A stretch of DNA of 23,545 nucleotides from Psammoneis japonica (Eukaryota), in NCBI GenBank assembly GCA_008632985.1, contig QPGO01000038.1:521939-545483 (forward strand). The letters are read 5' to 3'. A model generated the notes under the pieces. The model saw nothing but the letters and a program-made list of their open reading frames with translations, was not told the DNA's origin and did no database searches. This document shows positions 1 through 19,733 of this stretch, piece by piece. Within the stretch, counting starts at the first letter, position 1. Every line of letters starts with the position of its first letter. The position numbers were made by a program, and so were the translations under genes.

Positions 1-1153
1 GCCTTTCATCCATTGCCGCAGCAAGATGTGACAATCCAATGATGTTTGCTGTTCTCAGGGAACTCGCCCAAGTTGGAAAGGATCTTGTGAAGGGAACTTT
101 GGGCTTCTTTGCTGTGAACACACACTCATTGGGGCAAGTCATCATCTTGGCCATTGCAAGCCTCAAAGCCCTTCTCACCACCGTGATCCTTTGTGAAGCA
201 CCACAAAGGATGCAAGCAGCATCCCAAGTTGAGTGAGTGATGTTGGAAGTTTTTGCGCCATGCACATGTCCCAGTGGGAGAGTCATCATGACAGACCGGA
301 GGTTCTCTGAACAGCATTTTCTGATCAGGGGTCAAGCTCACAACAAAGAGAGTGCAGCCATTGAGAATGATGCAATCAGAGGCATTGATGTGATGACGGA
401 ATCCATGGTCACAATGGACGAGTGAGCTCTTCAGGGTGGCGTCTCCATGTTCTTTGCGGCTGCAGCATTTGCGGGCATTGGCAGGCAGAGCATCAGGGTT
501 GAAGAGATGTTTGGATGCAGTGGAAGTTGCAGTGCTTCCAGATGTCTTGCCGGAGGCAGCAGAAGGCAGAGCAGTGCTCGGCGCAAACTTGTTGAGGGCA
601 GTGATTGAGTCATTCACACCAGTGGTTGCAGGTCCGGAGCTGGTGGCAGGCGAGGATGCAGGCTGTGGTTTCTGCTGGCAGGGCTTGAGGGAAAACTCTT
701 TCCAACCCCAACAATGCCATGTCATGTCAGGATCAATGCAAATGTGTTGTGTGGAAATGACAATGTGTGTCGTTTGATCATTGCTCCAGAGATTGTCTTG
801 ATCATCAACGACATGGCTGGAGACGTCGCGCGGATTGCACGAGGCCTGGCGGGGTTTGCAGCACGGAATGCAGCTTGACCCACAATCGTCTTGACAGGCT
901 GCATGTCCACAGGATCAGCCGTGCATGGTGGGAATGTTGTGCAGATGATGTGATCTTGAGATGAGCCCACATGATCATTCTTGGGTTGAGCGTGCTCTGG
1001 ATTGTCAAAGAACGGGCCCAGGTCAATTGTTGAGTCCGTGCGCACCTCATTCAAACACGCGCGGAGATGAGGTGTCAATGCATGTTCTTGAAGCTCACAA
1101 TGGATCTCTGCAAGAGACGTTGGAGTGGCCTTTGCAAGGTCAGGGGATGCCAT
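1..1153 (-). pseudogene. Gag-like protein of a diatom copia element, frameshifted and hypermutated
   Basis: Two ORF pieces (722-1288 and 126-725) lie in different frames, and reading continues past the TGA at 126-128. The string AWRKNFQHHSLNLGCCLHPLWCF...GF...DDDLP...LHKILS...FP...IVTSCCGNG matches my recollection of CoDi Gag (WY..F..H....G.Y.HP.WCF...DDLP...GDGY) once Cys/His/Arg are read back as Tyr. Recognised from memory, not by search. Confidence 0.65.
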
Positions 1154-1343
1154 GGTTGCACTTGGTGAGAGCATTTTTGGTCGCGCACATGCAGAAATCT
1201 GGTGTGTTTCTACGATCGTGAAAAATGCCGGGAAAGCAAGCAAAAATTGTTGCTGGAACAGACAACGAGGCTTGCTTTGTTGGCTCACAAAACAAATGAA
1301 TCAAGGTGGAAAGTGTGGTGCAGAGTTCTGTGGCACAGCACAA

Positions 1344-1353
1344 GGCCACAACC
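1344..1353 (-). promoter_or_regulatory. Putative primer-binding site (internal tRNA-iMet type, degenerate)
   Basis: The minus strand reads ...TGTCA|GGTTGTGGCC immediately after the putative LTR end. The copia-type PBS is GGTTATGGGCC/GGTTATGAGCC, so this differs by TA->TG and one missing base. Confidence 0.55.
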
Positions 1354-1964
1354 TGACAGAACACTGACGGTCAATGATGACAGAGGCACAAAAGACTCCC
1401 CAAGCACTGGGGCTGTGACAACACAAGTGCCATGCCCTGTGCAAAAAACAGGGTCCAAGCACTTGGTTGCAAAGAGGTCAACAATTCTTGTGCTGTGCAA
1501 ATCATGGGGCTGTTTTTGCAGAGTGCGTGCATGTGCGACAGCAGGACATGCGGAGCTTCAGCCCTTCCATGCAGCCAATCATGCTTGGTCCCTTCACATG
1601 CAAGGTGAGTCACGCGCGCAATGGCCAGTCATGCTGGTCTCAGTTGCATGGATGTCCAGCAGACCATCACAGGTCTTGCACTGGGAGTCACGTTGTCCAG
1701 TGTGCACTTCTGCGGGATCAGCATCGGAGTTGCCTTGGCAGTGGTGTGTGCAGTTGCACGGCAGAAAGTTTCAGTCCAAGGGTTGTCTTTGCCCAGCTCC
1801 ATGTCTTGCACTTGGAGTGCTGCACGAGCACAAGCACTGCATCAAGAAAATGCAATGCACAGTGTCAAGTTGTGTGCGTTCCACTGTGCAGTTCACCCTG
1901 GGTTAAAAAAAAAAGGTGGCGCATCGACACGTGTGCAGAGTTGATCAGGCTCCACTCTCTGTCA
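1354..1964 (-). repeat. Putative 5' LTR (~611 bp)
   Basis: Bounded by a perfect 7-bp inverted repeat, TGACAGA (1354-1360) and TCTGTCA (1958-1964), giving TG...CA ends, and it abuts the PBS. The outer boundary is uncertain because the partner LTR is outside the window. Confidence 0.45.
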
Positions 1965-1994
1965 CATGGCAACACCCCTTCTGTCTTTGACAGG

Positions 1995-2030
1995 CAATGG
2001 ACAAGGCAAAACCAATGGACAAGGCAAAAC
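1995..2030 (+). repeat. Perfect 18-bp tandem duplication CAATGGACAAGGCAAAAC x2
   Basis: Seen directly at 1995-2012 and 2013-2030. It precedes a T-rich non-coding stretch and may be a subterminal repeat of a DNA transposon. Confidence 0.9.
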
Positions 2031-2657
2031 AATTTTGCTCATGTCACACTCTTTCACTTTCACAGAAAGAGCACAACAAATTTGCATTTGAGTGGCGGGT
2101 TTTTTGTCGTGAAGCTCTTTTTGCACCAGCTCAGGTTGTTTTTTGAAGTTCACGTGCCTTTTTGGGCATTTTCATGCCTTTTCCGGGCATTTTTACAATT
2201 CTCACAAATTTTGGTGCCGAAGTGTCACATTGTTTCTGACCGTTTGTTGAGTTGGTTGAAGTCAGTCAAACCAAATGGTCTGCAGCCCATGAGCAGTTGA
2301 GTGCTCTCATTTTTTTAGAGCACGTTGACTTTCTTGTGTGTGATTTGTCACACGCTGGTTTTTCCGTTGCACCCTTCGAGCGTTTTGTCACATGACGGCT
2401 TGTTCAGCACTTTTTTGCATGAAGGCAACATCAGAAGAGAGCACGGTGCACCTCCTGTGTGCATGCTTTTCTCACACAATGGGTTTTTCTGTTCAACCCT
2501 TTGAGCACCACATCAATTGACGTCGTGCATCCAAGTGTCAGTGTGTGCAGTCTTTCTCACTGCGTGTCATTCTTTGTGCAGGCCTTTTGTCTGACGTGCT
2601 GTTTGGCCTTTTTCTTTAGATGCAGTGGCTGGTGTCTTTGCCGCGGCATGGACATTC

Positions 2658-3954
2658 TCACATCAAAGTGTCAACAAATGACGTGTGCACAACAACGCTG
2701 CTCATGCACAGAATCAATTGCATCTGGCGCTGCGCGAGCATCAGCTCCAGGCCATTTGCAGGCCTTGCGGAAATGTCGCATCCATTCTGCATCCCAGAGA
2801 TGTGGAAAACATGCCACAGGCAGTGTCGCAAGTCATTTTCTGTTGACACTTTGTCTCAGGCAGTTTGGCATGTCTTGGCTGCTGTTTTTGCACAGTTTGC
2901 AGTGCTGCCTTCTTGGCAGTCATCGGTGTCAGCATCTTTCTCACCGGCGATGAATGAAATTTAGAACAAGATTCTCAGATTGCTCATGAAACGCAACATC
3001 TGCGGCTTTTGTGTCAAGCGTGTTGAATCTTGGAGCTTGATGAGATCAATTTTCTCATCGCTCAGCAGTGCATGCTGTGCATCACCGCTGCTGTCAATCG
3101 CTGAAAGTTCTGAAAAAACTCTTGCATGTTCTTGCCACACGATCGCCACCTTTGACGATTTTTTTGCTCTCTGCTGTCCTCCCAAGGAAACAGTCACAGA
3201 GAGCAGGAAATTGATGCTCTGTTCATCAGAGGCGTTGATGTCGCAACATCTGTGATTTTTGTGCAAAGTGCATGATTGCATTTTGGCACCACCTCATCTA
3301 AATGTGATGATTTTCTCCATTTGTGCAATTGTCACAAAGCTCCCAATCATCACATCCGAAAGCTGTTGCCTGTCACTTTTTGTGTTTGCACCCACATCAC
3401 AACAACATGCAATGTCCAACAATGTTCCAATTGATGTGTTTTCATCTAGTTTCATCATCATGATGCAAAGTGAACACCAAATGTTTGTCCAATCATTCCG
3501 TTTCCTCCTCTCCACTCGTGTCCGGGGGTGTTGTCCACATCATGCCTTGCCTGTTCAGTCCATTCACAATGTTGCATGCTTGGTCACTTTCTTCTTTGGT
3601 CCCATGCAAGAATGCCAAAACTGTGTCTCCAGCTGCCGGGTGAACCCCAAGCACCTCCATGCGAATGTCACGGCTGCCTCCCTGAAACCTTTCTGGCAAC
3701 TGAGAAATCTCTCCTTGCTTTGGCGCAGGCTTCTTCTCCATTGTTTTTTTCTTGTTCTTTGCTCTTTCTTCCTCTGTCTTTGCCTCAGTGGCCGTGGTCG
3801 TTGCCTTCTCAGTCGTGTTTGCATCTGACTTGTTAGTCTTCGCTGCTGCTGTTTCAGCCGCCTTCATGGTTTCATCCTCTTTGATGTTTGTTGTTGTTTT
3901 TCTTCTCTTTCTTCTGACCTGGACCAAAATTTCTGAGTTGTTTGTCCACAACAT
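2658..3954 (-). pseudogene. Degenerate ORF of unknown function inside the hypermutated domain (probably transposon accessory or cargo)
   Basis: A chain of protein-like minus-strand ORF pieces (3493-3954 with a Lys/Glu/Thr/Ala-rich N-terminus, 3294-3515, 2961-3281, 2658-2849) separated by stops and a frameshift. Family not recognised. Confidence 0.4.
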
Positions 3955-4103
3955 GCATTTCTGGATGTTCCTGTGTCATTTTTGCGTGCGTTGGATGAAG
4001 CCTCCCACGCAATTGTCACCTGCACAAGTGTGCATGTAGAAATCCACATCAATTTGCAGTGCAAACATGCTTCTCTGGCTTCACCTCTTTCACAATTTCC
4101 GCA

Positions 4104-4935
4104 TCACTCCTTGTCATCATTCTCTCCCTCCCACTCATCAGTTTTGCTGTCATGTTCCTCTGCCTTGTCTGAACAGTCCTCAAAACAATCCATTGCCTCC
4201 CACTGTCCGATGGCATCCAGAATTCCTTCGTGCTTGTCATCACTCAAACAATGTGGATCAAGAAGTGAAGCCTCATTCCTGTTGCACATGCTTGGCAGTT
4301 CCAGAGTGGCTGGTGGTCCATTGAAATCAATGTTGGCAATTGCAGCTTGCTTGAGCAACACTCTTGTCTTACATTCCTCAGCATCGCCGGGAGTGTGCCA
4401 TCCTCTGGCCCTTGGAACAGGGCTGAGATGTGTTCCCCAGCAAACCCATTCACTGGCCTTGACAGTTGTGGGTGGATCAAACTCTTTCCACACCTTGTCC
4501 TCCTGTGCTTTGTGGGGGGAGTTCATCCCATTGCAGCAGACAAAAGCCCTCCTCAGATTCACAAGACAATGCAGCACAGCTGTTTGGAACAATTTCCTTG
4601 GCCATTTCCTCAGTCAGAGAGTCCAACACAGATTTGTGAACCAACTGCACCTCATTGGCATCACTCTTGTCTGTTTGAATCACCTGGCACACTTGCCAAT
4701 CATTCAGTCCCTCAAAGATGGACCACAGTTTGCAAGCTTGGTTGCCACCTGCATGTCATGGCTGCTCTGTTGGCTTGACATTTTTCACCCATGGCCGTTT
4801 GAGCTGATCCAGGCAGGCTTCACAAGCACAAGGAATTCTTCGCATGGCAACCCAACCAGTGGGGAAAAGAGGTTCAAATCGGAAATGGCGCACGGCTCCA
4901 ATGCCACAATGGTGCATGTGCACTTGCACCATGTT
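4104..4935 (-). pseudogene. C-terminal relic of a probable DNA-transposon-associated protein with a CxCxxC motif
   Basis: Continuous reading HFRFEP...AMRRIPCACEACLDQLKRPW...EQP*HAGGNQACKLWSIFEGLNDW...GFCLLQWDELP, then a +1 frameshift in the G6 run at 4514-4519, then HKAQED...EWVCWGTHLSPVPRARGWHTP... and an acidic tail. It resembles repeated diatom transposase-associated C-termini as I recall them. No DDE core is visible and the superfamily is not assigned. Confidence 0.55.
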
Positions 4936-6111
4936 CTTTGCTGCTCCTGCAATGAACAATGGCAATGGACATTTCTTCAGGGCCCACACAAGAAGTGTGA
5001 CAATGTGCGCACCTCTCCATCATTGTGCAGCACACTGTCATTGAGTTTGGAGTCTTGGTTTTGAGAAGAACTGGCGCGCTCAAATGACGTGCATCACACA
5101 GCATCCGCTCTGTCTTCTGTTCTCAAGATGGGGCAGGGTGGCACCACATCTTCAACAGCAGGTTTTTAGCAGAGCAGAGCATGGTTCAGCAGGTGCAGTC
5201 ATTGTCAAGTGGAGTGGTCAGAGATGGGATTGAGCAGCCACAATGGGATCACACACTTGGCCCCAATGGTGGGAATTGTGGAACTTGGGAACCAGAAAGT
5301 CCTCCTGGCATCATGGCACCAAGGCGGAAGCAAAGGCTGTTTGCTCTAGAATCAACAACCACCTGGTGAAAGACAAGGTGCACTTGTTGGATTCTGTTGA
5401 TGACACCTGAGGACTCACTCTGCTCACAGGTTGTGAAATTGGTTGACCACGGTGCACCCTGTGTTCAAGTCCAGCACTCAGGAAGCCAAACGGCAGTTGC
5501 TGCAAGAGGCACTCGCACTGTTTGGGGGTGTGGGCCAGCTTGATGCCAGAGTTGCAGGGTGAGTGTGGCAGCACCTGAAACACAGAATTTGGGTTTTGTT
5601 TTGAGTTGGAAACACAAAATGCAGCAGGTGCATGTCATAAAATGCTGTCACTGGGCATCATTGCTCTTCACTGTTTGTGAAGGAAAGCAAAAATCTCCAC
5701 ATTGCACCTCTGATGCTCAAGTGAAAGAAAGCACATTTTTGCAATGACCACATTAGCTTTGGCAAATCTTGCAAGCCAAAAGCCGTCTTTGGCAAGTGAA
5801 GCTGTTGTGTGAGCCACTGTCAGCAGCAGCTCAAGTGCTCATAAGACAGCAGACACGCCAGCAGCTGTGAACACCAGACAAAGCTCTGCAGACAGCTTGC
5901 TCATGTTGCTGTTGGAGTTTCAGTGTCACCCCAGCCTCACGCCACTCATCTTGTTCCTTTTCAGCCAAGCCACTTTGTGTGTCTTGCATTTTCGATCGAT
6001 GGAGAACAATCCTTAGACAGACAACTGTCGACTTATCAAAGCAGACGGGCAAGCCCAAGACATGGCCAAATGCCTCAATTATATGCACGTCCTTAGTCAC
6101 TATTCACTATT

Positions 6112-8940
6112 CTAGAAAGTTTCAATCAGCTCTTTGGCGGAGGCATGAGATTCCCGGTCTTTTGCCGTCATGAGCTGCTCCACGACGTCGACATTCGCAT
6201 CCAGCATCTGTTCCTCGTCACTCAATTTCTTCAACACCTTGGCAGCAAAAGAAGCCGCCCGTCCTTCCGTTCGAAAATACCCTGGGGCTGAAAGCAAAAA
6301 ATCAAACGACAGAGCGCCCATGTCAACCCAAGTCGTAACAATTGTTGCCAAATGGGATTCGGCAAGGGGTGCGTCAATAACAATGTCGCTTAAGAATTCT
6401 AGCGGATCCTTCAAGCCTGTGCACAACGATTCTTTCTCCAATTTAGATTCCTTGATGCAGCGCACCAATACAGTGAGCATTTTGGACACATCTCCTGCCT
6501 TCATTTCCATAACCAGTAGGACACTGCTCTCTACCACCTTGCTGCCACGATCTACAGATCCGTCACGTCCTGCACCAATGATTTCATCGAGACTCAAAAC
6601 CGCATCATCCGTATCTCCGCCGCTAAAATACTCTTTCAAAATGCTCTCCGCCTTCTTTCCACATGAATCTGGACTGGGGTATTCAGTCTTACTTTCTTTT
6701 GGAGGCGACGGTTCTGTCTTTTCTTCAGCTACTACCTTTTGGCCGCTTTCCTTCTTTCCCACAGAACCTGACCGTTTCGGTTTGTTACTCTTGAATCCAC
6801 TGGATCGTGAAGAGGTGACATCCGACACGCTTCGTTTTAGTCCCGGCTTCTTCGAGGGGATTTGGACAAAACCTTCGTGATCGACAATGCTCTTTTTGGA
6901 ATCGCGGCGGTCGAGAATACGCACATCACCCGCGCTAGCACGTCGTGGGCCCAATGCTTTCAAATTTCCCGAGCTCGAGCTTCGACGAGCCGCCTTGCGC
7001 TCTTCCTTTGCTACTTCTTGATGGATCTCTTCAATAGTCTTGGCAGTCTCCACTTTGCGTCGTGTTACCCAGCCTGTTCAAAGCACGCCCGTTGACAACA
7101 TTGTTAGATGACAAACAGAGAACGAGCTGAGCAACGTCATAGAATAACGTGAATAATGTGAATAACTCACCCTTGTCTCGCATTTCCAACAAATCCTGCA
7201 GCATAAACTTGAAGCGATTACTAACCTGTTGAGCAGGTTGGTCATTCTTCCTACCGGCCATGACTTCAACTAAATGCCAGCAGTCATTCACTTTCTCGTA
7301 CGGCTGTGACTTCCCAATCTCATTCAATGCCAAGCTCTGGTTCTGAAGGGAAGCACCAATCGTGGTCATCAACTTGGCAAAGCACTCGATCTTTTCTTCT
7401 TCCACCTCGCCACTTTCCTTCTCCGACGCACTTCCTTCGTCGCCTTCTCCTTTCAACAATGTGTCGAGACACCACAACATAATATCAATCTTAATCATAT
7501 CGCCCTTGTAGAGTTCACCAATGAATCGCATATGGCCCAAGTAATGCTTTCGAATCAGAGTCGCGTGGTAATCTATTTCTTCCTTGTCAGTGATACCCTC
7601 TGTAGCCTTTGCAATCTTGTGCGCGGTATCTAACTCGAATTCTTCCTGACACCGAGAGAGTAAGAGTTTCTTGAAAATCTTCTTCTTTTTCGATGACCCA
7701 GCGTTGTCGTCAAAAGCAAACTCTTGTTGAGCCAACTTTGAGCACAACTGCGCATACATGTTTGCAAAGTGAGGTTCCTGCTGTGCCTTGTTGACAATAA
7801 GCCCAATGGCACCCTCCAAACACGCCTTGTTTCGTCCAATCCCCGTGTCAATAAAGTCATCACTGAGCTTATCGAATTTTGTTAGGGACAGCTTGTTGAG
7901 AATCAATAGTGCCTTTTTCAGAACAGCTTCGTCCGACTCTTCATCCTGATCCTTATCGTCGGTCATGACTTTGGCCTTCCAGCGCGTTTCATCATTAACC
8001 TCCAATGGCTTACAATCTTCCAAAGCCGGAGCTGTATCGATAACCTTCTTCTTTGAATGCCGTTTTTCAATCGAAACGTCGCCTCCCTGTCTAGGAGCAA
8101 CGTGTGTCGAGCTGATCTCTTCCTTGCGATTCTCAGCACACCATTCACACGCTTCTGGCGGATTCCAATTCTTGGCAGGAGGATCCAAAAAGTCAAGGCG
8201 TACCGCCAATAAGTCTTCAAAGGTAAAGCGTTGAACCGCCTTTTGCACCTCCGTCGTCCCATCACCGGGATTGCATAGCTCCAGAATGACCAACGTCTTG
8301 TTGCTGCCGTGGTTGTTACTGTTGTTGGGACCACGATTGTGTTGATGGTGGTGGTGGTGATTCCGGTTGCCACCGCCGCCGCCGCCACTATTATTCTGAT
8401 TTCCGTAGCCACCGTGACGTCCACCACCACTGTGCTGACGCTGACTCTTTCGTCCGTGATGGTGGTGGTGATGATTATGATGATCGCCATGTTTATCACT
8501 CGAGTTGGAACGATTGCCCCACTGCTTACCGTGTCCTCCTTTCCTTTGCTTTTGTTTGGATGCAGCTGCTTTTAGCGACGAGGATGATGATGAAGCAGCA
8601 GCTGCGGCGGCAAAGGATGGGGGAGGAGCGGCCCTTACAGCGTCCATGGGCTTACTTCCCCAAGCCATCACGGCAGGTTTTGCCGCAGGCTTCGGAGCAG
8701 CTTCTGGTGCCTTTTTCGGTTCAGCCGGAGCCGGTAAGGCCTTAGAAGTAGCTGGCGATGGCCTTGAAGCCACCTAACGTATCAAAGAGAAAGAAGATTG
8801 AGTGTTGAGACGATTCCTGTACTTCTCTATGATCCATCAATCGCTTCAATCAGCTTCAATTCAAAACAACATACCGATGATCCGGGAACAAACGCCTTCG
8901 AGCTCGGGTTCAAGCCCGCTGCTTTTTTACTCTCAGGCAT
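6112..8940 (-). CDS. eIF4G: Eukaryotic translation initiation factor 4G (MIF4G + MA3 domains); exons 8940-8875, 8773-7171, 7073-6112; 876 aa
   Basis: MIF4G hallmarks ILNKLS..KFDKL, KAQQEPHFANMYAQLC, LLLSRCQEEFE, GHMRFIGELYK and RFKFMLQDLLEMR. The MA3 domain carries ILKEYF...IVIDAPLA. GT-AG introns at 8874-8774 and 7170-7074 splice in frame (…GSS|VAS…, …MRDKG|WVTRRKVETAK…), total 2631 nt. Confidence 0.93.
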
Positions 8941-9379
8941 TCTTTCTTTGACTTCTGACTACTAGAGTAATGTCAAACGAAGGTCTACGGGTCAATCGTA
9001 TTTACAACTTGATGACGTGCTGCAATCTTGACAAGAGCGGCGCTGTTTTCGTCTTCTTGCGATCTGATGGCATGGTCGCGGCGCTCGTCCCGCATTCGAG
9101 AGCTCTGTGCCCAACGCAAAGGTTGAAGTCAACGTAGTATGTTTTTCACGTACGATTTGCGTAGCCATTTTTGGCGGGTAATCTTCTACGTACTTTAACG
9201 TAGAGAATGTATGGAGCGAGACGATCGGGTTATGAAGTGATGGGAATGAGAAAGATTATCGCGCACTATCGTCAGCATCATCGTCGGCATTTTGTTCTCA
9301 CTTCTTATGCTTTTCTCCGGTATTAATTGTCAACTACCATACCTTTTACCGAACTTCAAACAACGAGAAACAAGTGACC
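8941..9379. promoter_or_regulatory. Short divergent (bidirectional) promoter region
   Basis: ~440 bp between the head-to-head ATGs at 8940 (-) and 9380 (+). It contains several ACGT-core motifs (9015 and ~9132-9202). Confidence 0.5.
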
Positions 9380-10465
9380 ATGGCGTTCATCCGCATCAGC
9401 AAAAACAATCGTGCGACAGCAGTGTTGATTATGTTCATGCTGAGTTTGATAACAGCCTTTCAAACTTTCTCAACGATGACCACGTCCTTCAGGCGGAGGA
9501 CTAGACAAAGGAATCGAGATTTCTTTCAAACAATGGCATCTTCTAAGGGCGAAACAGCGGGCAGCAAGCAAATACTGGAAGCCTCGATTGAAGGTGTGTC
9601 GGTATCGGATCGTGGCTTTCGGGTAGTGCTGGCTGTTCCTATCGAGAGTAATAGCAATTCTTCTTCCTATCTCGCAATCCAAGTCACGTCCAGTCCTCCC
9701 GACGACACCCTCTCCGCGACGTCTGCTGAGGCTCTCACATTGCTGCAGTTGATTTCTAGTGTAGACATGGCTGGTCCTATTCTGCCACCAGAGTTTCTAG
9801 GACAGATTACTATTCTGCATTGTGAAGAGCAAAACGATAAGAATGAGCAAGAACAAGCTTTCCTTGGGCTGGTAAAGGATACCCTACCAGAGCCCCTGTA
9901 TTCAGAGTGCAATACATGGCAACGATCCAAAGTGCGATTACCAAAAACGAGTTTGAATCAAGTAACAATAACGGTCGAAGACAATATAATGGACTGGACT
10001 TTATCCTGTCGATTGGTTCAATTTCCACAGTTGGACGAGGTGAAGGTGAAACCTACTCCTGACATTTTGAAGCAGGTCTGTTATTCGTACAACGAGAAAT
10101 CATCAGCTGCGTTTAGCTGTTTAGCATGTGCCTTGCGATACAAAGCTCGCATATCGTTGGAAGTACTGGGTGATTTTGACTCGCAGCAAGACTCGCCTTC
10201 ATTCCAGTGGTTGGAGACGAAGGATGCGCTGCAAGAGACTTTTCCAATGTACAGATCCAGCACAGCACTCAAGACCCAATCGGATAGAGTCCACACAAAT
10301 ATTGAACGGGGATTCGAGATTCACAAGTTGTCTGGTGCACTACGCATTGCAATGGAGCGAGGTGACGAGGAAGCGGTTAAAAAAATCAGACAAGAGTTGG
10401 ACAAATACGATTCCATGGATGATTTGCCGACGACTCCGAACGACGGTTTAGATCAAATGCAATAA
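9380..10465 (+). CDS. Bifunctional nuclease (DUF151/BFN)-like protein with C-terminal UVR-type helical hairpin, probably plastid-targeted
   Basis: 361-aa intronless ORF. Hydrophobic leader ending ITA-F; IEGVSVSDRGFRVVL, SAEALTLLQL, ACALRYKARI (compare BFN ALALR..API); C-terminal LRIAMERGDEEAVKKIRQEL is UVR-like. Confidence 0.6.
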   Translation: MAFIRISKNNRATAVLIMFMLSLITAFQTFSTMTTSFRRRTRQRNRDFFQTMASSKGETAGSKQILEASIEGVSVSDRGFRVVLAVPIESNSNSSSYLAIQVTSSPPDDTLSATSAEALTLLQLISSVDMAGPILPPEFLGQITILHCEEQNDKNEQEQAFLGLVKDTLPEPLYSECNTWQRSKVRLPKTSLNQVTITVEDNIMDWTLSCRLVQFPQLDEVKVKPTPDILKQVCYSYNEKSSAAFSCLACALRYKARISLEVLGDFDSQQDSPSFQWLETKDALQETFPMYRSSTALKTQSDRVHTNIERGFEIHKLSGALRIAMERGDEEAVKKIRQELDKYDSMDDLPTTPNDGLDQMQ

Positions 10466-11231
10466 TGAAAGAATCCCTTTCCAGCCATCATGAAATTACA
10501 AGAATGTTGTGCCTTTTGTATTGTGAATCATGAAAGCCTCGTTGTCGATAGGATGCTCTTAGCTAGTTCATTGGCTGCGTTAGGGCATAACGCCAAATAC
10601 TCTTAAGATACTCAAAATGAGTTGAAAAGAATGTTAGGACCAGGGTATTATGAGGGAAAATGATTGCACCGTATGCTGCATCAATAGTTTGCATGCCTTA
10701 TCTACTAGAGAGTTCATGCGCAGAGCCAAGGGGAAGGTGTGCGATGCTTCAACTTATCGAGATAAACTAAATGAAATAGGAAAGGTAGGCCGCAAGCTGT
10801 TATGACATCTTGCATCAGCTACACTCATAGAGATGATACGTCGCACATTGTAGATTCACGCTTACTCCACTCTAGAGAGTTCATTGGCAAAGCCAAGAAA
10901 GTTTTTGCGATGTTTTATCGTTTTCTAGATCAAACTCAATGCAATGTGTAGGCAACAAGCCGTACAAGGCTAACTTATAAACGTTGCGACGTCTAATCAC
11001 AGCTACAATCATAAAGATGATTCGGTGCACATTGTAGATCCCTCTCCCATCTAGTAGACAAGAAAGACACGGGTCAAGGATGTTCGTGTCCCATCCAGAG
11101 TAACTGCATAATTCTCTACAACGCACAGGCTAACGTCTTGATGGGTAAGAAGCAAAGTTGAGGTCTCTATATGGGCTCTATTATATATTAGCTTATTCTG
11201 TGTGGGGTGCTGCATCATGTACCGCAGCTTT

Positions 11232-11906
11232 TTATGACGCAACAACCAAGGTGCGTGGTTGCTGCTGCTGTTGTACCGGTGTTTGCTCTTCATCACCACA
11301 TCGCTGCCTCACATTTCTTGCAACTTCTTGGGCTGCTTCTGTGAGAGATCGACTCGAGTGACGCTTCCGGCTCTTGGTAAGCGGGAATGGGATGACAGGA
11401 ATCTCTGGCATTGACTGAACAAGACTCGGGTGATAGACTTGGTAAAAGTCCTTCTGTCCTGTCTGCAGTGCCACTTGTCTCGCCCATGCGGTACATCTGG
11501 CTGCAATGGTAGCGAGCGCTTCCGGTGATTCGTATCGCTCCTGCGCTTTGAGGATAGCGCAGTTGGCCAAGAACTTGTGCTTTTGTCGTTCTAGGGAGAT
11601 ACGGTGCTCGAGGCCTCTTGATTCAGGAGCTTCCTCGTTGCCAGAGTACTGCTCGACTCGCAACGCACGGCACAAGTCCCGAGCTTCTTGTTTGAACTGT
11701 TCCAGTTGTGATTGCTCGTACCAGATTTCGTTGCGTTCTTGCTGGGTAATGCTACAGCTGCATGGCACTGTTGACATGACTTGAACAGTATCGGAGAAAC
11801 ACACTCCGCGTGATCGTCGGCGGCCTACGTTTGGCTTTGCAACCATTGGTTCCGCTGGGACTGTGATTGTGAGCTTGGAGAGAGCGGTGGTTTCAACCTT
11901 GCACAT
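11232..11906 (-). CDS. Diatom-specific hypothetical protein (V.F..VQV...WY...RGLE family), 224 aa
   Basis: ATG at 11906. Motifs RGVCFSDTVQV, EIWYEQSQLEQFK, RGLEHRIS and AILKAQ are typical of an expanded family of uncharacterised diatom proteins. Confidence 0.75.
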   Translation of the reverse strand: MCKVETTALSKLTITVPAEPMVAKPNVGRRRSRGVCFSDTVQVMSTVPCSCSITQQERNEIWYEQSQLEQFKQEARDLCRALRVEQYSGNEEAPESRGLEHRISLERQKHKFLANCAILKAQERYESPEALATIAARCTAWARQVALQTGQKDFYQVYHPSLVQSMPEIPVIPFPLTKSRKRHSSRSLTEAAQEVARNVRQRCGDEEQTPVQQQQQPRTLVVAS

Positions 11907-12618
11907 GATTAAGTTGTATGATGGTAATGTATGTAGTAAGTAGTTGAGAGTCAACTGCAGGAGTCAATTGCCATACAGTAGTACGATGTGATGTTCTTCT
12001 TTTCTTTTTTGTGCGACGAGCAAAAGTGTAATAAGAGAAATGAATGAACCTTCGCGAGAACAGCCGCGAAAGGTCGTGAAGCCGCGAGACATCGCGTGTG
12101 TGGAACACACGCTCCAATGCCGTATTAACGATGACTGATTCAAACACATATGGAGAATCTGTGTAACTTGGACAAACTATCGAGACATTCACGATTGGGA
12201 TTGCTCTAAGACAAAAGTAAGTACGTAGAGATGTACTGTACGTGTGTCAATTCTTCACGATTACAGCGCCAGCCAGCTTGACGACATTCTGAAAAAGCAC
12301 GATCATTAATTGATTTAGTTTCTAGTCATTAGCGACTTCTTCGGTACTTTCAGTGTTAAAGGAGAGAAATGACCATTCGTAATCGCGATTAGAAAACTAT
12401 CATTTTCACGTGTAACTGAACGTCAATTCTATATGCTTCTTTCTTTGTAAGTATAATTGCCCATGTTCAACTTTTATTGTTGTTAGATGCCAATGCCCTC
12501 TTTCGCGCGCTTTTTGCTGGTTGAGAGAGAAGTCCGAGGAATCGAAAGATCCAAACGCCGATGAACGATATAGGCGTCGTCGTTTTCGTTTCCACAGCAC
12601 CGGTATTTTGAGTTCATA

Positions 12619-14079
12619 ATGAGACGCCCGTTGTTTCTTCTCACCATCAGACTTGTCAGTAGTGTCCATGGTTTTTCTCCGTCGACAATACGTGAGAAGC
12701 TGCAGAGGACTCCGACTCAGCGTGCCAAGGTTTGCGTGATTGGCGGTGGCGTCAGTGGTTTGACAGCGGCCGCTGAAATAGGTCGAGATGCGATTTTGCT
12801 CGAATCAAGTGAAACGCTGGGAGGACGAGTTCAATCTGATCTTGTGGAGGGCTTTATTTTGGACCGAGGCTTTGCGGTCTTTATTGAGGAATATCCTGCC
12901 GCCAAGAAATTGCTAGACTACGATCAACTAGATCTCCGCCAGTTTCTTCCAGGAGCTCTCATCAAAACAAACGACAGAACTGAAAAACTTGCCAGAGTAG
13001 TTGACCCACTTCGAGGCGGCGATCTACTCACAGCTCTCTTCACACCGGTAGGAACCTTTCGAGACAAGCTTGCCATGCTGCCCTTGCTTATCAACGTTCG
13101 AACCAAGTCCATACAAGAACTATTTCAGGAACCTGAAACCGATACTTTGAGCTATCTACAGGATCGGTTTTCAAACGATATGATTTCTAAGTTCTTCAAA
13201 CCATTTTTGCAAGGGATTTACTTGTGTCCCCTGGAGGAACAGTCTTCTCGCATGCTATTATTCGTAATGAAAATGTTCTCGGAAGGCGCTGCGACACTTC
13301 CGGCAAAGGGGATGCAGGCTGTAGCCGATCAACTTGCTGAGAAAGCAACCAATGCCGGGGTAGAAATATGCAGAAACCGACGAGTAAAGAGTATTTCGAA
13401 GGAATCTGACGGGTTCTTGATAAAGTGTTCTGGCGGACCAAACGTTGTCGCCGACTCAGTGATTTGCGCAACAGAGGGACCAGCGGCGAAAAAGCTCCTA
13501 TCCACATTTCAAGGACTCGAGTCTCTTGCGGACGGTCCAGATCAGCCACAACGGTCTGTGGGCTGTCTCTATTATACTTTTGATACGTCAGTACCAGTTT
13601 CAGATCCCATTCTTATCTTGAATGGCGTGGACAACGAATCTGAGAGTCTCCCCATCAACAACATCTGCTTTCCGTCTGTGGTAAGTAGCAGCTATGCACC
13701 TCCTGGCTCTGGGCTTTGCAGCGTTACAGTGCTGGGACATGTCATGGAGTCGTTCCAGAATAGTACCGACGAGCTTGACACGGCTGTTCGCAAGCAACTG
13801 GTATCCTGGTTTCCTGACTACGAAATGGACATTCTGGGAAAATGGAATCTGAAAGGCACCTACCACATCAAATTTGCCCAGCCGGCACAATTGTATGGTC
13901 CAATGCCGGCTAATGTGAACGGCGGTCGATCGTGTGATTCCTTTCTCGGTCAGCGGCTTCCGCCTGGTCTGTTTGTTTGTGGCGACTACATGGCAACTGC
14001 CACCCTCAACGGCGCACTTGAAAGTGGTTTGTTGGCCGCAAGAGCTGCGTCGACACACATTATGACGCAGGAAGAGTAA
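12619..14079 (+). CDS. FAD-dependent oxidoreductase (flavin amine oxidase / protoporphyrinogen oxidase / phytoene desaturase-like superfamily), probably plastid-targeted
   Basis: 486 aa. Rossmann motif VIGGGVSGLTAA, LESSETLGGRVQSD, LDRGFAVF, C-terminal FVCGDY...TLNGALESGLLAA; leader ending VHG-FSP. Confidence 0.85.
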   Translation: MRRPLFLLTIRLVSSVHGFSPSTIREKLQRTPTQRAKVCVIGGGVSGLTAAAEIGRDAILLESSETLGGRVQSDLVEGFILDRGFAVFIEEYPAAKKLLDYDQLDLRQFLPGALIKTNDRTEKLARVVDPLRGGDLLTALFTPVGTFRDKLAMLPLLINVRTKSIQELFQEPETDTLSYLQDRFSNDMISKFFKPFLQGIYLCPLEEQSSRMLLFVMKMFSEGAATLPAKGMQAVADQLAEKATNAGVEICRNRRVKSISKESDGFLIKCSGGPNVVADSVICATEGPAAKKLLSTFQGLESLADGPDQPQRSVGCLYYTFDTSVPVSDPILILNGVDNESESLPINNICFPSVVSSSYAPPGSGLCSVTVLGHVMESFQNSTDELDTAVRKQLVSWFPDYEMDILGKWNLKGTYHIKFAQPAQLYGPMPANVNGGRSCDSFLGQRLPPGLFVCGDYMATATLNGALESGLLAARAASTHIMTQEE

Positions 14080-15938
14080 TATCGGATGCCATTGGTCATT
14101 CTGCAGACTGGAAAACAGCATTGAGAATGATTCATGTTTGAGATGTGGACGATTGGGATGTGGACGAGGACACATCTCGGCACAAAACTCACTTGGAAAA
14201 ATTTATCATCGCTCCTCAGACATTTATTTTTTTAATAATCGAATAGCTTGAAGCTATTGTCACTCAAAACTGGTTGATGGCAGGAGCTACTAAAATGCAA
14301 AATGCGAGGTTTCTTATTGAACCAGTGGCTACCACAATGGTTGCGAGCTTTTTGACGAGGACAGAGCGGAAAGCGAGACCAAGCGGCTGCGGTTTCCAAG
14401 TTCCTTTGTCTTATGAGCTCGGACCGATAGTCCAATGGAGAGGGGTCAAAACATTCATCATAGATGCGACGGCCTACCCGTCAACGTCATGCAGACAAAG
14501 CTAACCATTGAAGGTAGTTGTTTCAATAACGAAAACAACAATGGCCAGTTTGTACCTGTAATGTCGTCTAGTTTAAATCTACAAGTACCATAAAAAGCAA
14601 AGGAAGTACGTTTGTACCATAAATAATAATTACGGTATAAAGCCGCGAACTGGAAGATTGTTGAGTAGGGGTCTTTTGCCCCGGGGTTTTGATGGAGAGT
14701 ATTTTTTTTTCGTTCTGTGGGCCTGAGCCAGGGCAGCTGTGCCCGAGGAGGGGGATGCCGTACTACTAAGCTCGCCTTTTACACCACTTAGCAGGGTCTT
14801 ATACCCTTTCTCACCTCAGATGCTATTCACTCCTTTTCTTAGTTTGGCCTCTTTTCAATTTTTTACGCTCAATAATACCACACGGTATAGACTTTGGTGG
14901 ATAACAAGGTCACTAGCCGATCAACCCCTGTCCTGCGGGAAGGCGTATCCACAGTAACATTGACAGGGTCCCGGTTCTAGGCCGTGCTTCCTTTTTTAAT
15001 GTCTCAGAACGCTCTCGTCACCAAGGATTGTTTTGTACTGGAGGAAGAACCCGGTCCACATCATACGCAATCACAACAATGAACGCAACTACACCCAAGC
15101 CGAATCCAGCGTATTCCAACCATTCACCACAATCATCCGTCATCATGAAATTCCAATAGTAAGTATTGAAGGAAAGAACAGCATCACAGACACTGAGACG
15201 CTCCTCCTCAACCTACAAATGAAAACACTCAATCACACGGATGATGCGTGGTGCTCCACAATCGGGGTGTCAAACCATCGACAAGAAACCCTCAATCTCA
15301 TGTCGTGGAGGTTCTGGAAGTCGAATATGGACTCTAAACAAACGCCACGCAGAGTCCAAAGACGAGCTACAGTTCCTCTACGACACGAGAGTGAGAACAC
15401 TACTTCTTCGAGTCGACGGCGATCATGGTAGAGGCAGGCATCACGCAGGCGTTGTCTGACTTGGCTATAGAAAAGTCCATGGTTGAGAATGCATACAATA
15501 CAAACCGCGGCCTTCGTTCTTACCCCAAAAACAACCCTGACAATTCTCTGTTTCGATGAATTGTGACCAATGATTGATGTTCCGATCAGCTATCACGCTC
15601 AAGCGACCAAGCTCAGCGACATACCAGGAATGCGTAGATTCTACACGAATTCCGAAACACGACTCATTTCACGATTGTTAGGATCAGGTTTTGCGAGTGC
15701 AATGAAGGTGTTGGCTCAAATGATAAGGTTTTCAAACGGTCATTTTTCAGCTACCTTTCTCTTCCCTTGTACCGTCGTCAACAACCGCCGTCGCGGCACC
15801 GTGTGGGCTATGGTGCCGTAATAGATTATGTCGGAGGGAAGTTTCGCAAGTTGAAGTTCGCATGCGATCTTTCGCGCGCGTTTATTTGACAATCGACGGT
15901 ATTTACCACTTGCCACACAGTTCATTTCAACACCGACC

Positions 15939-17027
15939 ATGGCGTTCCCCAAAACGGTCCTGGCTTTCCTAGCAGTTCTAGTTGCTTTTGCGATTCAACT
16001 GGATTTTGGCGTAGAACTACATGAGTGGTCAACTCGACAACCTCGAGTTGATCTGCTTGAGAATAGGAACAGCGAAGACGAAACAAGCTCGGGCGCTCTT
16101 GTTCAATTCTCGAGTCGATCCGAGACCTTGGTTGGCCGAATCTTTTACCCGGTGAATGGCACAGATCAGCCGCCACCCGTAGTCATCCTTGCACATGGCT
16201 TGGGACTTTCGCAAGACTGCTCTCTTACAGGGTTTGTAGAGGCGTTTCGCGGAGCAGGATTTGCCGCCTTTACATTCGACTACGCTACGTTTGGCATGTC
16301 GACCGGCACCCCGCGTCATCAGGTACACCCGGAGAATCTTATTATGGACATTAAAGCGGCCATATCCACACTTAAGGAACGTTCCACCCAGCTCCAAATC
16401 GATGCATCGAGGACGGCTCTGTTTGGGACTTCTCTTGCGGGGGGGCATGTACTCCGTGTGGCAGCCGAGACTAAGGATAACGAGTTGCGCTGCATCATAT
16501 CACAGATCCCACACCTTGCAAGTGGTGCCGAATCTGCTTTTGGAACTATGTTACGGACTCCTGGGTCAACTTTTCTGAGTGTAGGAAAATTAGGTCTTGT
16601 TGCAGTCCGCTGGGTGGTTCAGTGGACGATGGGCAGGTCTTTGTACGTGCCTCTTGCTGGCCTACCTGGTTCGCTAAGTCTGATGCAGAACGATGGTGTC
16701 TTTGAGGGATATCTTTCCTTGACACCAGAAAATGGTGGGAAATTTGATTGGCGAAACGTAGCAACGCTCCCGTCTTCTACTCGAATCCTCAAGTATCGAC
16801 CGCTTGATGCCGTTGAGAACGTGCAAACTCCAGTCTTAATGATTGCAGCCGAAGAAGACACACTCTGCCCTGCTATTCACGTCGAGACAGCTAGAAAACT
16901 CATCGACAGACGCGATACTGAGGTCGTAATACTCAAGGGCGCCCGCCACTTTGATCTCTATCGTGGGGAACAGCATGAGCAGTCGGTTCGCGCATGTGTA
17001 GCGTTTCTGCAAAAGCACATGTCATAG
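15939..17027 (+). CDS. Alpha/beta-fold hydrolase with N-terminal signal or membrane anchor
   Basis: 362 aa. VILAHGLG, FTFDYATFGMSTG, nucleophile elbow GTSLAG, acid in AAEED, His in GARHFDLY. Confidence 0.88.
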   Translation: MAFPKTVLAFLAVLVAFAIQLDFGVELHEWSTRQPRVDLLENRNSEDETSSGALVQFSSRSETLVGRIFYPVNGTDQPPPVVILAHGLGLSQDCSLTGFVEAFRGAGFAAFTFDYATFGMSTGTPRHQVHPENLIMDIKAAISTLKERSTQLQIDASRTALFGTSLAGGHVLRVAAETKDNELRCIISQIPHLASGAESAFGTMLRTPGSTFLSVGKLGLVAVRWVVQWTMGRSLYVPLAGLPGSLSLMQNDGVFEGYLSLTPENGGKFDWRNVATLPSSTRILKYRPLDAVENVQTPVLMIAAEEDTLCPAIHVETARKLIDRRDTEVVILKGARHFDLYRGEQHEQSVRACVAFLQKHMS

Positions 17028-17369
17028 GACAGCACCCTATATGCCAGAGAAACGGTATAGTTGCAACATTTTCCGAAATGTGGTACTTTGCTCTAGAGTG
17101 ATGATAAATCTGTACGTGGCCAAATGGTTTCGGTTCGTTTGGAAAACATACGAATGGTCTTGCGAGGAATGCGAATTGCGGAATCATATAGTACTCACAA
17201 ATTCAACGAGACATGACAAGGTGGCTGATCCTTCTCGGTGCATCTCTCATGCCGTACAAAAAGACCCACACACTGTATCTACTTTCAGAAAAAAGAGCTA
17301 AAAGTGCTATCTATTTAGTTCATAAAAGCGTAGAGCCGCAAATATGATGATTCTCCATCGCGGTTCGCC

Positions 17370-18146
17370 TTATCCACTGTAGCGATTCGTTTCCCGCTCA
17401 AGTTGCACAACACGGTTCAATTCTTCCAATGCTTCGCAAGCTTCAATAGCCTCCACCAAACATTCGTCGCCCAAAGCACCACCAAGAGCTGGGGAGTTGC
17501 TTGCGGAAGCAATCTCCTCCACGTCTGCCCACGCCACCTTAGCTTCTGGTGAATCCTTGCCATTCTCCTCAGAGATCGATTTGGCCTTGGCCATGGCTTC
17601 TCGAAGAGCAGGCGAGTCCGATCCAGGCAATGGGTTTGACGATGGCATTTTGATGGCCTGAATCTCTGAAGCGAGAGTCTTGACATTTTCCATTTTGGGG
17701 CCGAAATCTTGAATGATATCAGATAGCTGCTGCATCTTCTCTTCATACTCTTTGCAAGCGTCGCTCTCGTCCTCTTCAGGAACGTAGCAATCTTGATCAG
17801 TCACACCGCCCGTGTAAGAAGCGCTAAAAGAAGGATTTACGAGTGGTTGAAAGAGAAATGGATTTCGTAAGCTATGCTGCACCAGAGGTGTGTTTTGCCT
17901 TCCATATCTCTACAGTACTTACGAGTTATCAGATGCATCCATCTCCTCCACGATATCCCAAGCCACTCGTGCTTCAGGACTTCCCGCACCATACGTTTTG
18001 CTGGCAGCGACTGCGGCTTTGATGGCTTCGCTCGAGTCGACTCTACTGTTTGAGAGACTGGTCGAGGATCTTACGGTAGTGCCCCATGGCGAAACAAAGG
18101 CATGGCAAGAAGCCACTAGCAATAGGTTCGCAACAACAAGTTTCAT
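17370..18146 (-). CDS. CP12: Plastid-targeted protein with two CP12 domains; exons 18146-17923 and 17823-17370; 225 aa
   Basis: Signal peptide ending SCHA-FV. Two AWxxVEE motifs (ARVAWDIVEE, AKVAWADVEE), each followed by a Cys pair (CYVPEEDESDAC, CLVEAIEAC). The GT-AG intron 17922-17824 splices in frame (678 nt). Confidence 0.85.
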
Positions 18147-19300
18147 CGTGTAGCAAGTCGGTTGATGTGTTTACTGTTTATATTATGAGAGTTCAGAGTG
18201 CAGAGAACACAAAAATGCAAGAGACATCCATCAAGAAAAGATCGTGTGGAAAGCCAGCTGCCGATCAAAACACACGCACGCTGATTGGTCAACAGCTGCT
18301 ATGGAATCCTTCTTCGAAAGCGACTACGTTCTTCATTACATTCACGGTGATCATGGTTAAAAATACTACGAGGGGGATAATGAGGTCGAATTTTGTCAGT
18401 TGAGAGATTCCTTTTGGTCTGGACATCGGTTCGCTAAGATCGCGGGCGAACTTCAACTTGATGAAACTTCCCTCCGACACGTCTCAACATTCATTCTTAC
18501 CAAAACACACACACTGTATACCGGTAGAAGATGATGATCCCCGTTCGTGCAAGCCTTGTATTGAGAAACATTCTGACACTGTGGGGCGGGTATTAATAAA
18601 ACATTCCTGGTACATTCAAGTTGCATTTTGCTTTAACATGATTGGCTCAGTTCAGTCAATGTGCATACATGTAAAACTGGTACCAGGGATCTTGCATGAA
18701 ATAGTTCAACCAACAGATACATGACAGATACAAATGGAACAACACAGCCAATGGAAGCTACCCCTATTCAAGTATGAATCAGGTGAGTACGTGTGGTTTG
18801 CTTTTTGTTTGCTTTTTGTGTGACGTTGGCGTTTATTTGGAGTGGCACTCTCAATTTCTGTTCTGCGATTGCGCACGGTGTAAGGGTATCACGGAGTAAC
18901 AAACCGAGGCTTTCACGATTGCCTTCGTATCCCAATCGTGTTACGTACGAAATCGTTCTCCTGCCGGTGGCATTCGTCTTGTATCGGTGGGCCCGGAACG
19001 AAACTCCATTGATTCTGTAAAAATGTCAATAGGCGGACATGGTGACAAGTCAATTTTTCACATTGAACAGGTGCTATCAATATGGAGTACTCTGGATTAG
19101 TATCGCGGGGAGAGAGACAGCACTTTGCTCAAGCCTGCAAGTCGGGCGCTATACACACAGAAGACGACCCGACTACGCTGCGATATCTTTTCAGGATTCA
19201 GAAGAGCCAGATAACTGGCCTATACCCGATGTTGACGTTTCGTCAAAAGAATTTATGCTTGATCCACGTCTACTGCTACTACTACTAGTGGCTGACCGCT

Positions 19301-19437
19301 GCTCCACCATGTCCAGGACTTGAGCCGAGTCACTCCTACTACCGATAGTAGTTGCTGGAGTCGCTCCACCAAGTCCAGGACTTGAGCCACCTCAACTGTA
19401 AGTGGGAGGCCCATACCACCAAGTCAACGCTTGAGTG
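19301..19437 (+). repeat. 26-bp direct repeat x2 (1 mismatch) plus a degenerate third copy
   Basis: GCTCCACCA(T/A)GTCCAGGACTTGAGCC at 19301-19326 and 19363-19388; weaker copy at ~19413-19437. The unit translates as APP(C/S)PGLEP. Confidence 0.8.
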
Positions 19438-19733
19438 CGGTAGAGCCCACAGCTATGCAGAAGAGACCCATCAACGAATATGTTGCCACCGTCGGAGCTT
19501 GATTATCAAATGCGTGAGAATGATAGCTTGTTTGAGTGAGAAACTCCTTTCTTCTTCATTCAAGGGATGAAAGCGATTCACAATTAATTGGATTGTCTTG
19601 CGACATTTTCAAGTATCGATTTCTTTGTCCATTTGGTGCGACTGGTAGGGCTCACCTCAAGTATATTTGCATAAGAATCCGACCACCAAGTATGTTGCCG
19701 CCCCCGGAACCCTAGGGCTTAACACTGTGTGAA

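Follow-up and report, generated by a model that had tools for sequence, protein, structure and literature searches.

We assign a probability of about 0.85 to the following reading: near the start of the window (the whole stretch of 23,545 nucleotides that was analysed, to which all positions refer) a transposon gene persists as a dead fragment, in a block of DNA that has been altered in place by transition processes acting on TpA and on CpG. The codons of this fragment give the direction of the changes, both strands were hit, the TpA changes are confined to the block, and CpG decay has acted on the same DNA. Dinucleotide counts alone give no direction; here the outside reference is the dead gene itself, which has many intact relatives.

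The relic lies on the minus strand and comprises only the C-terminal quarter of a transposase-like protein of ~1,100 residues, without the region of the predicted integrase-like core that is described below for its homologues. Its family was recovered with phmmer, using as query the two upstream pieces of the relic (A and B) joined with an X at the in-frame TGA between them, and as target 1.84 billion representative proteins: 316 homologues passed E<=1e-3, 95 of them with E<=1e-10, and the best of all is 42% identical to the relic. Many of these homologues are 1,000-1,240 residues long and derive from metagenome or transcriptome assemblies, where they are named just ‘hypothetical protein’. A profile built from 16 long homologues matches the three pieces of the relic in order, from position 870 to position 1138 of 1141 (hmmsearch), and has no other match elsewhere in the window. 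The parts of the relic are as follows:

4759-5019, minus strand: piece A, open reading frame
4759..4914, minus strand: piece A, family match to profile positions 870-921, with the motif RRIPCACEAC (hmmsearch E 1.3e-19)
4756..4758, minus strand: in-frame TGA at an Arg column (Arg in 105/146 homologues); CGA to TGA is a CpG transition
4516..4755, minus strand: piece B, profile positions 926-1003, with the motif FEGLNDW (hmmsearch E 2.2e-20)
4514..4519, minus strand: six consecutive G, read as C on the coding strand, with one surplus base; a frame shift, at which the match moves from the frame of B to that of C
4107..4514, minus strand: piece C, profile positions 1001-1138, extending to the acidic C-terminus (hmmsearch E 1.2e-25)
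4104..4106, minus strand: terminal stop TGA; the profile match stops at 1138 of 1141

Six related contigs of public run X1 lack one base at 4514, and the window’s copy therefore carries a one-base homopolymer insertion. The first-pass annotation, which was made from the letters alone, had read straight across this shift (ELP-H-KAQ), and that reading fits a single surplus base. The same annotation had described a frame without Tyr, and had quoted the strings QP*HA, GFCLLQW, LP/HKAQ, GTHLSP, RGWHTP and AVRHFRF as the places of interest; all of these strings are present, with the codons CAT, TGT, CAC, CAT, CAC and CGC at the residues in question, and Tyr codons number 0 among the 268 codons that match the family. 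Bearing in mind that TA-free DNA encodes no Tyr in any frame, this zero merely restates the near-absence of TA: window 4104-5019 contains one TA (O/E 0.02), against ~40 if the density were that of window 6101-23545 (Poisson P 1.7e-16), together with 113 CA (O/E 1.89), 94 TG (O/E 1.76) and 10 CG (O/E 0.18). Because the lack of Tyr follows from DNA composition, it is the comparison with homologues that is informative.

For this comparison we aligned the homologues to the relic and considered those columns that are occupied in 30 or more homologues and have a majority residue. The relic has kept the majority residue at 0 of 8 Tyr columns, as against 77 of 110 other columns (Fisher p 1.3e-4); in place of Tyr, which it retains nowhere, it has His at four columns, Phe at two, and Cys and Arg at one each. 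The Tyr columns, including a ninth in which Tyr has a plurality, are these:

4888..4890, minus strand: Arg CGC, where most homologues have Tyr (Tyr 75, His 10, Phe 9, Cys 4, Arg 1 of 104)
4753..4755, minus strand: His CAT, where most homologues have Tyr (Tyr 93, Phe 36, His 4 of 145)
4576..4578, minus strand: Cys TGT at the ninth, Tyr-plurality column (homologues Tyr 34, Phe 23, Val 16, Ile 16, Cys 3 of 103)
4543-4545, minus strand: Phe TTT at a Tyr column (homologues Tyr 64, Phe 23 of 94)
4540-4542, minus strand: Cys TGT at a Tyr column (homologues Tyr 76, Cys 6 of 93)
4512..4514, minus strand: His CAC, where most homologues have Tyr (Tyr 26, Phe 9 of 40)
4479..4481, minus strand: Phe TTT, in a column of Tyr or Phe (Tyr 24, Phe 15 of 41 homologues)
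4428..4430, minus strand: His CAT, where most homologues have Tyr (Tyr 46, Phe 6, His 2 of 55)
4395..4397, minus strand: His CAC, where most homologues have Tyr (Tyr 41, Phe 8, His 2 of 55)

The first-pass annotation had claimed that Tyr was changed to His or Cys, and had set the alignment of homologues beforehand as the test; in this alignment the homologues carry Tyr, and not His, Cys or Arg, where the relic has His, Cys or Arg, which supports the claimed direction. The eight Tyr columns contain 627 homologue residues, of which His, Cys and Arg together account for 7.7%, whereas the relic has one of these three at 6/8 (binomial 4.9e-6). Moreover, 84 homologues span four or more of the Tyr columns, and in 74 of these Tyr is present at half or more of those columns. 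At 4540..4545 (minus strand) two such columns are adjacent, and the relic reads Phe TTT then Cys TGT where the family has Tyr-Tyr. The motifs that had been restored in the annotation, namely QPRY, GYY, LPY, YL and WYT, each match the family.

A single step from TAY to CAY or TGY accounts for five of the eight Tyr columns. Both outcomes are present, CAY at four Tyr-majority columns and TGY at one majority and one plurality column, and it follows that both strands were hit, just as the annotation had argued from the mixture of His and Cys. The CGC codon of AVRHFRF, which had been suspected to occupy a former Tyr position, does fall at a column that is Tyr in 75/104 homologues, and it requires two changes from TAC: it fits a putative double hit of TA to CG, and it also fits two separate changes by way of His (10/104) or Cys (4/104). 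The two remaining columns of the eight read TTT, and a TpA transition cannot yield Phe; to judge from the alignment, in which Phe is the second commonest residue at both, Phe may be ancestral there.

The ancestral residues in this analysis are inferred from homologues that are 25-45% identical to the relic. Among the 41 majority columns that have changed, ten are accounted for by single TpA or CpG transitions; the other 31 comprise 5 other transitions, 14 transversions and 12 multiple changes, as is expected at this evolutionary distance, and are uninformative. We also retrieved 48 metagenome loci of the family, in which TA O/E ranges from 0.19 to 0.87 and Tyr makes up 2.0-5.9% of the aligned frame; as all 48 have ordinary TA, the family is not TA-free by nature.

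Another key set of columns concerns Arg. Five of the ten Arg-majority columns are kept (CGA, CGA, AGA, AGG and AGG), and four of the five that are lost are explained by single CpG transitions, the codons now being TGA, TGT, CAG and TGG. The first of these is the in-frame TGA, and the other three lie in piece C:

4248..4250, minus strand: Cys TGT, where most homologues have Arg (Arg 27, Lys 8, Tyr 2 of 46)
4200..4205, minus strand: Gln CAG then Trp TGG where the family has Arg-Arg (Arg 35/46 and 40/44); both are CpG transitions from CGG

The suggestion in the annotation that CpG deamination had acted on the same DNA, which it had drawn from one CGA-to-TGA change, is thus borne out at that column, where 105 of 146 homologues have Arg, and is extended by the other three; the relic has a CG O/E of 0.18, the block as a whole one of 0.38. 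The codon at 4248-4250 is instructive in a further respect, in that eight contigs of run X1 differ from the window by C>T at 4249 and A>G at 4250, and so have CAT, the commonest reading at this codon among the related contigs, where more than half show it, instead of the window’s TGT. Both TGT and CAT are one step from CGT, and both are also one step from TAT. Such CA/TG swaps between copies alone give no direction, because either TA or CG can be the source, and because of this ambiguity the protein columns are needed. With inferred ancestors TAY at the Tyr columns and CGN at the Arg columns, the relic tells the two processes apart and shows which way each of them ran.

The loss of TA is not limited to the relic, which lies within a much longer interval of the same composition:

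1..6010, no strand: TA-erased block, which runs past the window start; right edge at 5843-6013

A dinucleotide count over window 1-5850 gave 16 TA (O/E 0.04), 655 CA (O/E 2.00), 650 TG (O/E 1.61) and 133 CG (O/E 0.38), whereas in the flank (window 6101-23545) the O/E values are 0.62 for TA, 0.98 for CG, 1.20 for CA and 1.14 for TG. At the density of the flank, ~255 TA would be expected where 16 were counted (Poisson P 1.8e-86). Expressed against flank rates, window 1-5850 has a deficit of ~239 TA and ~184 CG and a surplus of ~454 CA+TG: with TA and CG both turned to CA or TG, the deficits and the surplus balance. CA and TG are raised alike; adenines that follow A or G are undepleted (AA O/E 1.22, GA O/E 0.90), and the G+C content of the block is ~0.46-0.52. 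There are no TA dinucleotides between 5842 and 6014, and the end of the block is ~100-270 bases from position 6112, which is the stop-codon edge of an intact, eukaryotic eIF4G-like gene that has MIF4G and MA3 domains and an ordinary TA content. The depletion runs for ~6 kb across non-coding and unrelated DNA and halts beside a normal gene: the erasure of TA is confined to the repeat-rich block, and normally composed genome adjoins it. Farther along the window is an amine oxidase gene, for which all nine of the organism-named homologues are from diatoms (best identity 62-64%), and for this reason we regard the host as diatom-like. No RNA data sets are listed as containing this stretch.

That the relic belonged to a transposon had been stated in the annotation as a label; this label is supported through the relatives of the relic. 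Of the 48 metagenome loci, seven long ones were inspected for end repeats, and in four of these seven the gene is flanked by inverted repeats of 18-32 nt. The arms begin with GACG(T/C)G(T/G)TCC, are 89-100% complementary and bound units of ~3.9-5 kb; at the four repeat pairs there was no matching flanking repeat that would constitute a target-site duplication, and inside the window the end-repeat motif has 6 matches, compared with 8.2 expected by chance. An AlphaFold2 model of one homologue, P0005 (mean pLDDT 66), has a core, residues 623-854, that was placed by VIA-align on retroviral integrase catalytic cores with Z 9.9 and rmsd 3.3 over 152 residues, in a comparison in which chance best Z values of 7-8 are common; it was also placed on the IstA and mariner transposases. 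Four residues, D644, D737, D764 and D778, are invariant in 13 sequences. On the other hand, a Foldseek search against the PDB returned nothing at E<=0.001 (best E 0.028), and a profile search of the sequences of solved structures gave chance-level rows only (best E 0.024). An integrase-like fold for the core of the family is, as a model-based prediction, suggestive only.

Copies of the relic are abundant: X1, the one public run with this stretch, contains 954 contigs that are at least 80% alike to window 1-7000, and the summed word depth is 2839-3343 over 4213-4914 versus 46.5 over the single-copy flank at 5617-7000, word depth not being an exact copy number. The run differs from the window at 613 places, and none of the 40 that are listed restores a TA. 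Taken with the end repeats and the modelled core, these contigs support the view that the family of the relic is a multi-copy DNA transposon, with inverted-repeat ends and a transposase-like protein that has no Pfam family. Furthermore, we noted that the depth at 3277-3978 is 40-50, equal to that of the single-copy flank, and that TA is erased both there and at 5617-5850. Because the erasure spans these stretches of single-copy depth, it suggests that the TpA process is directed at a domain and not at repeated sequence in itself.

The family itself was elusive in other searches. Pfam had no family at the curated level for the three pieces of the relic or for 68 further stop-to-stop frames in window 1-6288, and none in 24 scans of long homologues. 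A word-indexed protein search with piece C, within a range of 92-296 residues, returned nothing, and it was the exhaustive HMMER search that revealed the family. Metagenome contigs searched with the relic protein yielded no close relative, and viral contigs scanned with the family alignment yielded no relative. A language-model look-up gave a cluster with a score of 0.92, of which 98% of members have DUF7869; we treat this as a lead only, since hmmscan of the relic and the 24 scans of long homologues gave no match to DUF7869 in a copy of Pfam that may lack this model, and a literature search on DUF7869 found no paper.

We account for these observations by two context-specific transition processes. 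In one, nearly all TpA in the block became CpA or TpG, depending on whether the T or the A changed, a single kind of event that looks different from the two strands; as a consequence, Tyr codons (TAY) became His (CAY) or Cys (TGY). In the other, many CpG became TpG or CpA, converting Arg codons (CGN) to TGA, TGT, TGG or CAG. The agent of the TpA process would most likely be an enzyme that deaminates adenine to inosine in DNA and that is aimed at silenced or foreign DNA. The CpG process would probably be the deamination of 5-methylcytosine in methylated transposon DNA, which fits the description of diatom transposons as cytosine-methylated (PMC9998398).

Three other explanations deserve consideration. 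The one that survives best is a lesion of thymine, in which a modified or oxidised T in TpA would mispair with G and leave the same footprint: T-to-C is indistinguishable by sequence from A-to-G on the opposite strand, TpA being its own reverse complement, and the equal rise of CA (655) and TG (650) is accommodated as well. We nevertheless consider it unlikely, as the sole published proposal for changes of this kind invokes an ADAT2-like adenine deamination, which is itself a hypothesis. Less probable still, and in our estimation a long shot, is the editing of RNA, whereby an ADAR-like enzyme, favouring an A that has a 5' U, would deaminate A to I in a double-stranded RNA intermediate that was then copied back to DNA. 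Action on both strands of the duplex would yield the same pattern of TA to TG and CA, and a comparison with ADAR is drawn in the Discussion of a preprint on the chlorarachniophyte Bigelowiella natans (Mettrop et al. 2026, bioRxiv 10.64898/2026.01.13.699255); however, the family has inverted-repeat ends and a predicted integrase-like core, the 24 Pfam scans of long homologues contain no reverse transcriptase, the whole ~6 kb block is erased, including the single-copy-depth stretch at 3277-3978, adenines after A or G are undepleted (AA 1.22, GA 0.90), and the changes that the preprint reports in B. natans arise de novo in resident DNA. As for a native or selected lack of TA and Tyr, that is, a lineage that always had His or Cys at these columns, or a TA-poor donor, with no TA-erasing mutation at all, the 42% identity of the nearest homologue does leave room for lineage-specific residues in any one column, but we give this hardly any credence in view of the contrast between Tyr columns (0/8 kept) and other residues (77/110), the normal TA content of 48/48 relatives, a frame so broken by the TGA and the frameshift that the protein is not under selection, and a loss of TA that extends for ~6 kb through non-coding and unrelated DNA to end beside a normal gene.

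Enzymatic deamination of DNA adenine, the agent that we prefer, has its closest parallel in that preprint. In mutation-accumulation lines of B. natans the de novo changes are reported to be confined to TpA, and to convert it to TpG or CpA (Mettrop et al. 2026, bioRxiv 10.64898/2026.01.13.699255). For two integrated viral regions, 230 of 231 new mutations are given as A-to-G or T-to-C, all on TpA, and the TpA-depleted genes of B. natans are described as enriched in DDE endonuclease and reverse-transcriptase domains (bioRxiv 10.64898/2026.01.13.699255). Its authors propose that ADAT2-like adenine deamination serves as a defence in this organism (bioRxiv 10.64898/2026.01.13.699255). The likenesses to our block, as far as the text of the preprint describes them, are that transitions are confined to TpA and lead to TpG or CpA, that the footprint is low TpA with high CpA+TpG, and that foreign or silent DNA is hit locally beside a normally evolving genome. 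The differences are several: the host is a chlorarachniophyte there and a diatom-like stramenopile here; the target is integrated giant-virus and virophage DNA there, and here the relic of an inverted-repeat DNA transposon in a repeat block; TpA in the B. natans viral region is reported as just 1.8-fold lower, whereas its erasure is near-complete here (TA O/E 0.04); and the direction, which according to the preprint was seen directly in the B. natans lines, is inferred from codons here. CpG, too, is depleted in our block, whereas a full-text term search of the preprint found no mention of CpG, of diatoms or of tyrosine in its text, from which its supplements may differ. A full-text literature search, supplements apart, gave no report of TpA-specific hypermutation in diatoms, and the B. 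natans preprint was the only report of such hypermutation that it found.

Other systems share some of these features. RIP, or repeat-induced point mutation, of Neurospora and other ascomycetes also riddles repeat and transposon DNA with context-specific transitions while sparing neighbouring genes. As summarised in the Discussion of the B. natans preprint, RIP acts by changing C to T mainly at CpA, making TpA and AT-rich DNA (bioRxiv 10.64898/2026.01.13.699255). RIP thus creates TpA, whereas the block described here loses it and gains CpA and TpG, at a G+C content of ~0.46-0.52. When RIP was considered as a candidate for the block its signature was not found, as TpA is almost absent and CpA is doubled. 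The decay of CpG in methylated transposons resembles what we observe in that CG is depleted and Arg codons become TGA, TGT, TGG and CAG; it accounts for the loss of CG only, and neither the disappearance of TA nor a change of Tyr to His or Cys can result from it. In animals, hyper-editing by ADAR and mutation by APOBEC3 resemble the proposal made here, as clustered transitions produced by deaminases that prefer certain neighbours and act against selfish or viral nucleic acids; these enzymes, however, act on RNA or on the single-stranded cDNA of retroelements, whereas the target here is a resident block of DNA. The preference of ADAR for a 5' U is, according to the B. natans preprint, not absolute (bioRxiv 10.64898/2026.01.13.699255), whereas the context here is strictly TpA.

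The relic is a sound further instance, and a clean test of the direction, of TpA erasure; it is not a new kind of system. With it, a diatom-like stramenopile joins B. natans, the sole published case of TpA-specific hypermutation that our literature search found. The erasure is far more complete than in B. natans, and what it struck is not an integrated virus but an ordinary DNA transposon. Should an enzyme be responsible, this would point to a TpA-specific editor of A:T pairs in DNA that occurs in nature, and to a route of genome defence so far undescribed in diatoms. A bolder extension of this idea is one that we offer tentatively, and would sooner bet against than for: diatoms may own a dedicated pathway of DNA hypermutation for chromatin domains, which would convert TpA to TpG or CpA on both strands of silenced transposon blocks and would work beside CpG methylation. 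It might be of the same kind as that of B. natans and might descend from an old, SAR-wide defence that mirrors RIP, in which case the CGC codon at 4888..4890 would be the trace of one episode in which the two adenines of a single TpA duplex were both hit. Lastly, we draw attention to a hazard for annotation: DNA from which TA has been erased is devoid of TAA and TAG stops, and as a result it presents long false reading frames.

Erasure of TA seems to track the whole block rather than just those pieces of it that can still be recognised as repeats, because two stretches (window 3277–3978, which holds three TA, and 5617–5850) are TA-erased even though their summed contig depth in the public run X1 is 40–50, equal to that of the single-copy flank (46.5). 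Elsewhere in the block, as over the relic, summed depth in run X1 is high, about 980–3640, at 1–468, 1171–1404, 2809–3042 and 5383–5616; the transposase profile matches none of these four segments, which presumably derive, as fragments, from repeat families other than that of the transposase. Short, diverged direct repeats were also noted where the window is TA-normal, at 21164–21386 and 10705–11039, of 50–67 nt with 77–84% identity and of 26 nt with 88%.

The block adjoins an intact gene, and the transition is abrupt, on the order of a 3′ untranslated region in length: the edge of the block falls within 5843–6112, some 100–270 bases downstream of that gene's stop codon. The domains of the gene are as follows:

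7034–8773, minus strand: MIF4G domain
6115–7077, minus strand: MA3 domain

Sixteen TA dinucleotides remain in window 1–5850:

TA at 1211, 1904, 2194, 2316, 2617, 2962, 3299, 3447, 3834, 4037, 4370, 5167, 5347, 5638, 5754 and 5842

The flanks of these sites are non-random. Ten of the 16 stand in a YTAR context, as against 126 of 761 TA in the TA-normal flank at 6101–23545 (Fisher p = 6e-5), and none is in an RTAY context, which accounts for 216/761 in that flank (p = 0.009). The remaining TA could be new mutations instead of survivors.

Loss of TA also bears on the coding appearance of the block, which contains several other long open frames besides the following:

3937–5064, plus strand: open frame of 375 codons, opposite to the transposase-like relic

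A Pfam scan of this frame and of the block's other long frames gave no match in any of them. As neither TAA nor TAG can occur where TA has been lost, all of these frames are most simply a by-product of that loss.

Among metagenome loci of the same transposase-like family, four carry intact relatives of the relic:

L002, 199–4090: transposon-like unit
L003, 124–5114: transposon-like unit
L010, 1164–6036: transposon-like unit
L007, 168–4420: transposon-like unit

These units span 3.9–5 kb, have inverted repeats that begin GACG(T/C)G(T/G)TCC, and each hold a single gene of about 1,000–1,150 codons without a Pfam family; no target-site duplication was recognised at any of the four. A CTACGT(A) motif lies immediately inside the left end of the L002, L003 and L010 units, and in L007 it reads CTACG, where the examined stretch ends. 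Together the units look like a DNA transposon group that is undescribed or unnamed.

Some public protein homologues bear the signature of the relic. P0124 has 0.6% Tyr, 6.3% His and 5.1% Cys, and its Tyr columns read HFHHHH; P0045 has no Tyr at all (its columns read CFHC), and those of P0122 read CFFC. In a further metagenome locus of the family, L044 (1–1182), observed/expected ratios are 0.19 for TA, 0.03 for CG, 1.62 for CA and 1.93 for TG. Taken with the three proteins, this locus suggests that other organisms may likewise harbour TA-erased copies of this transposon family.
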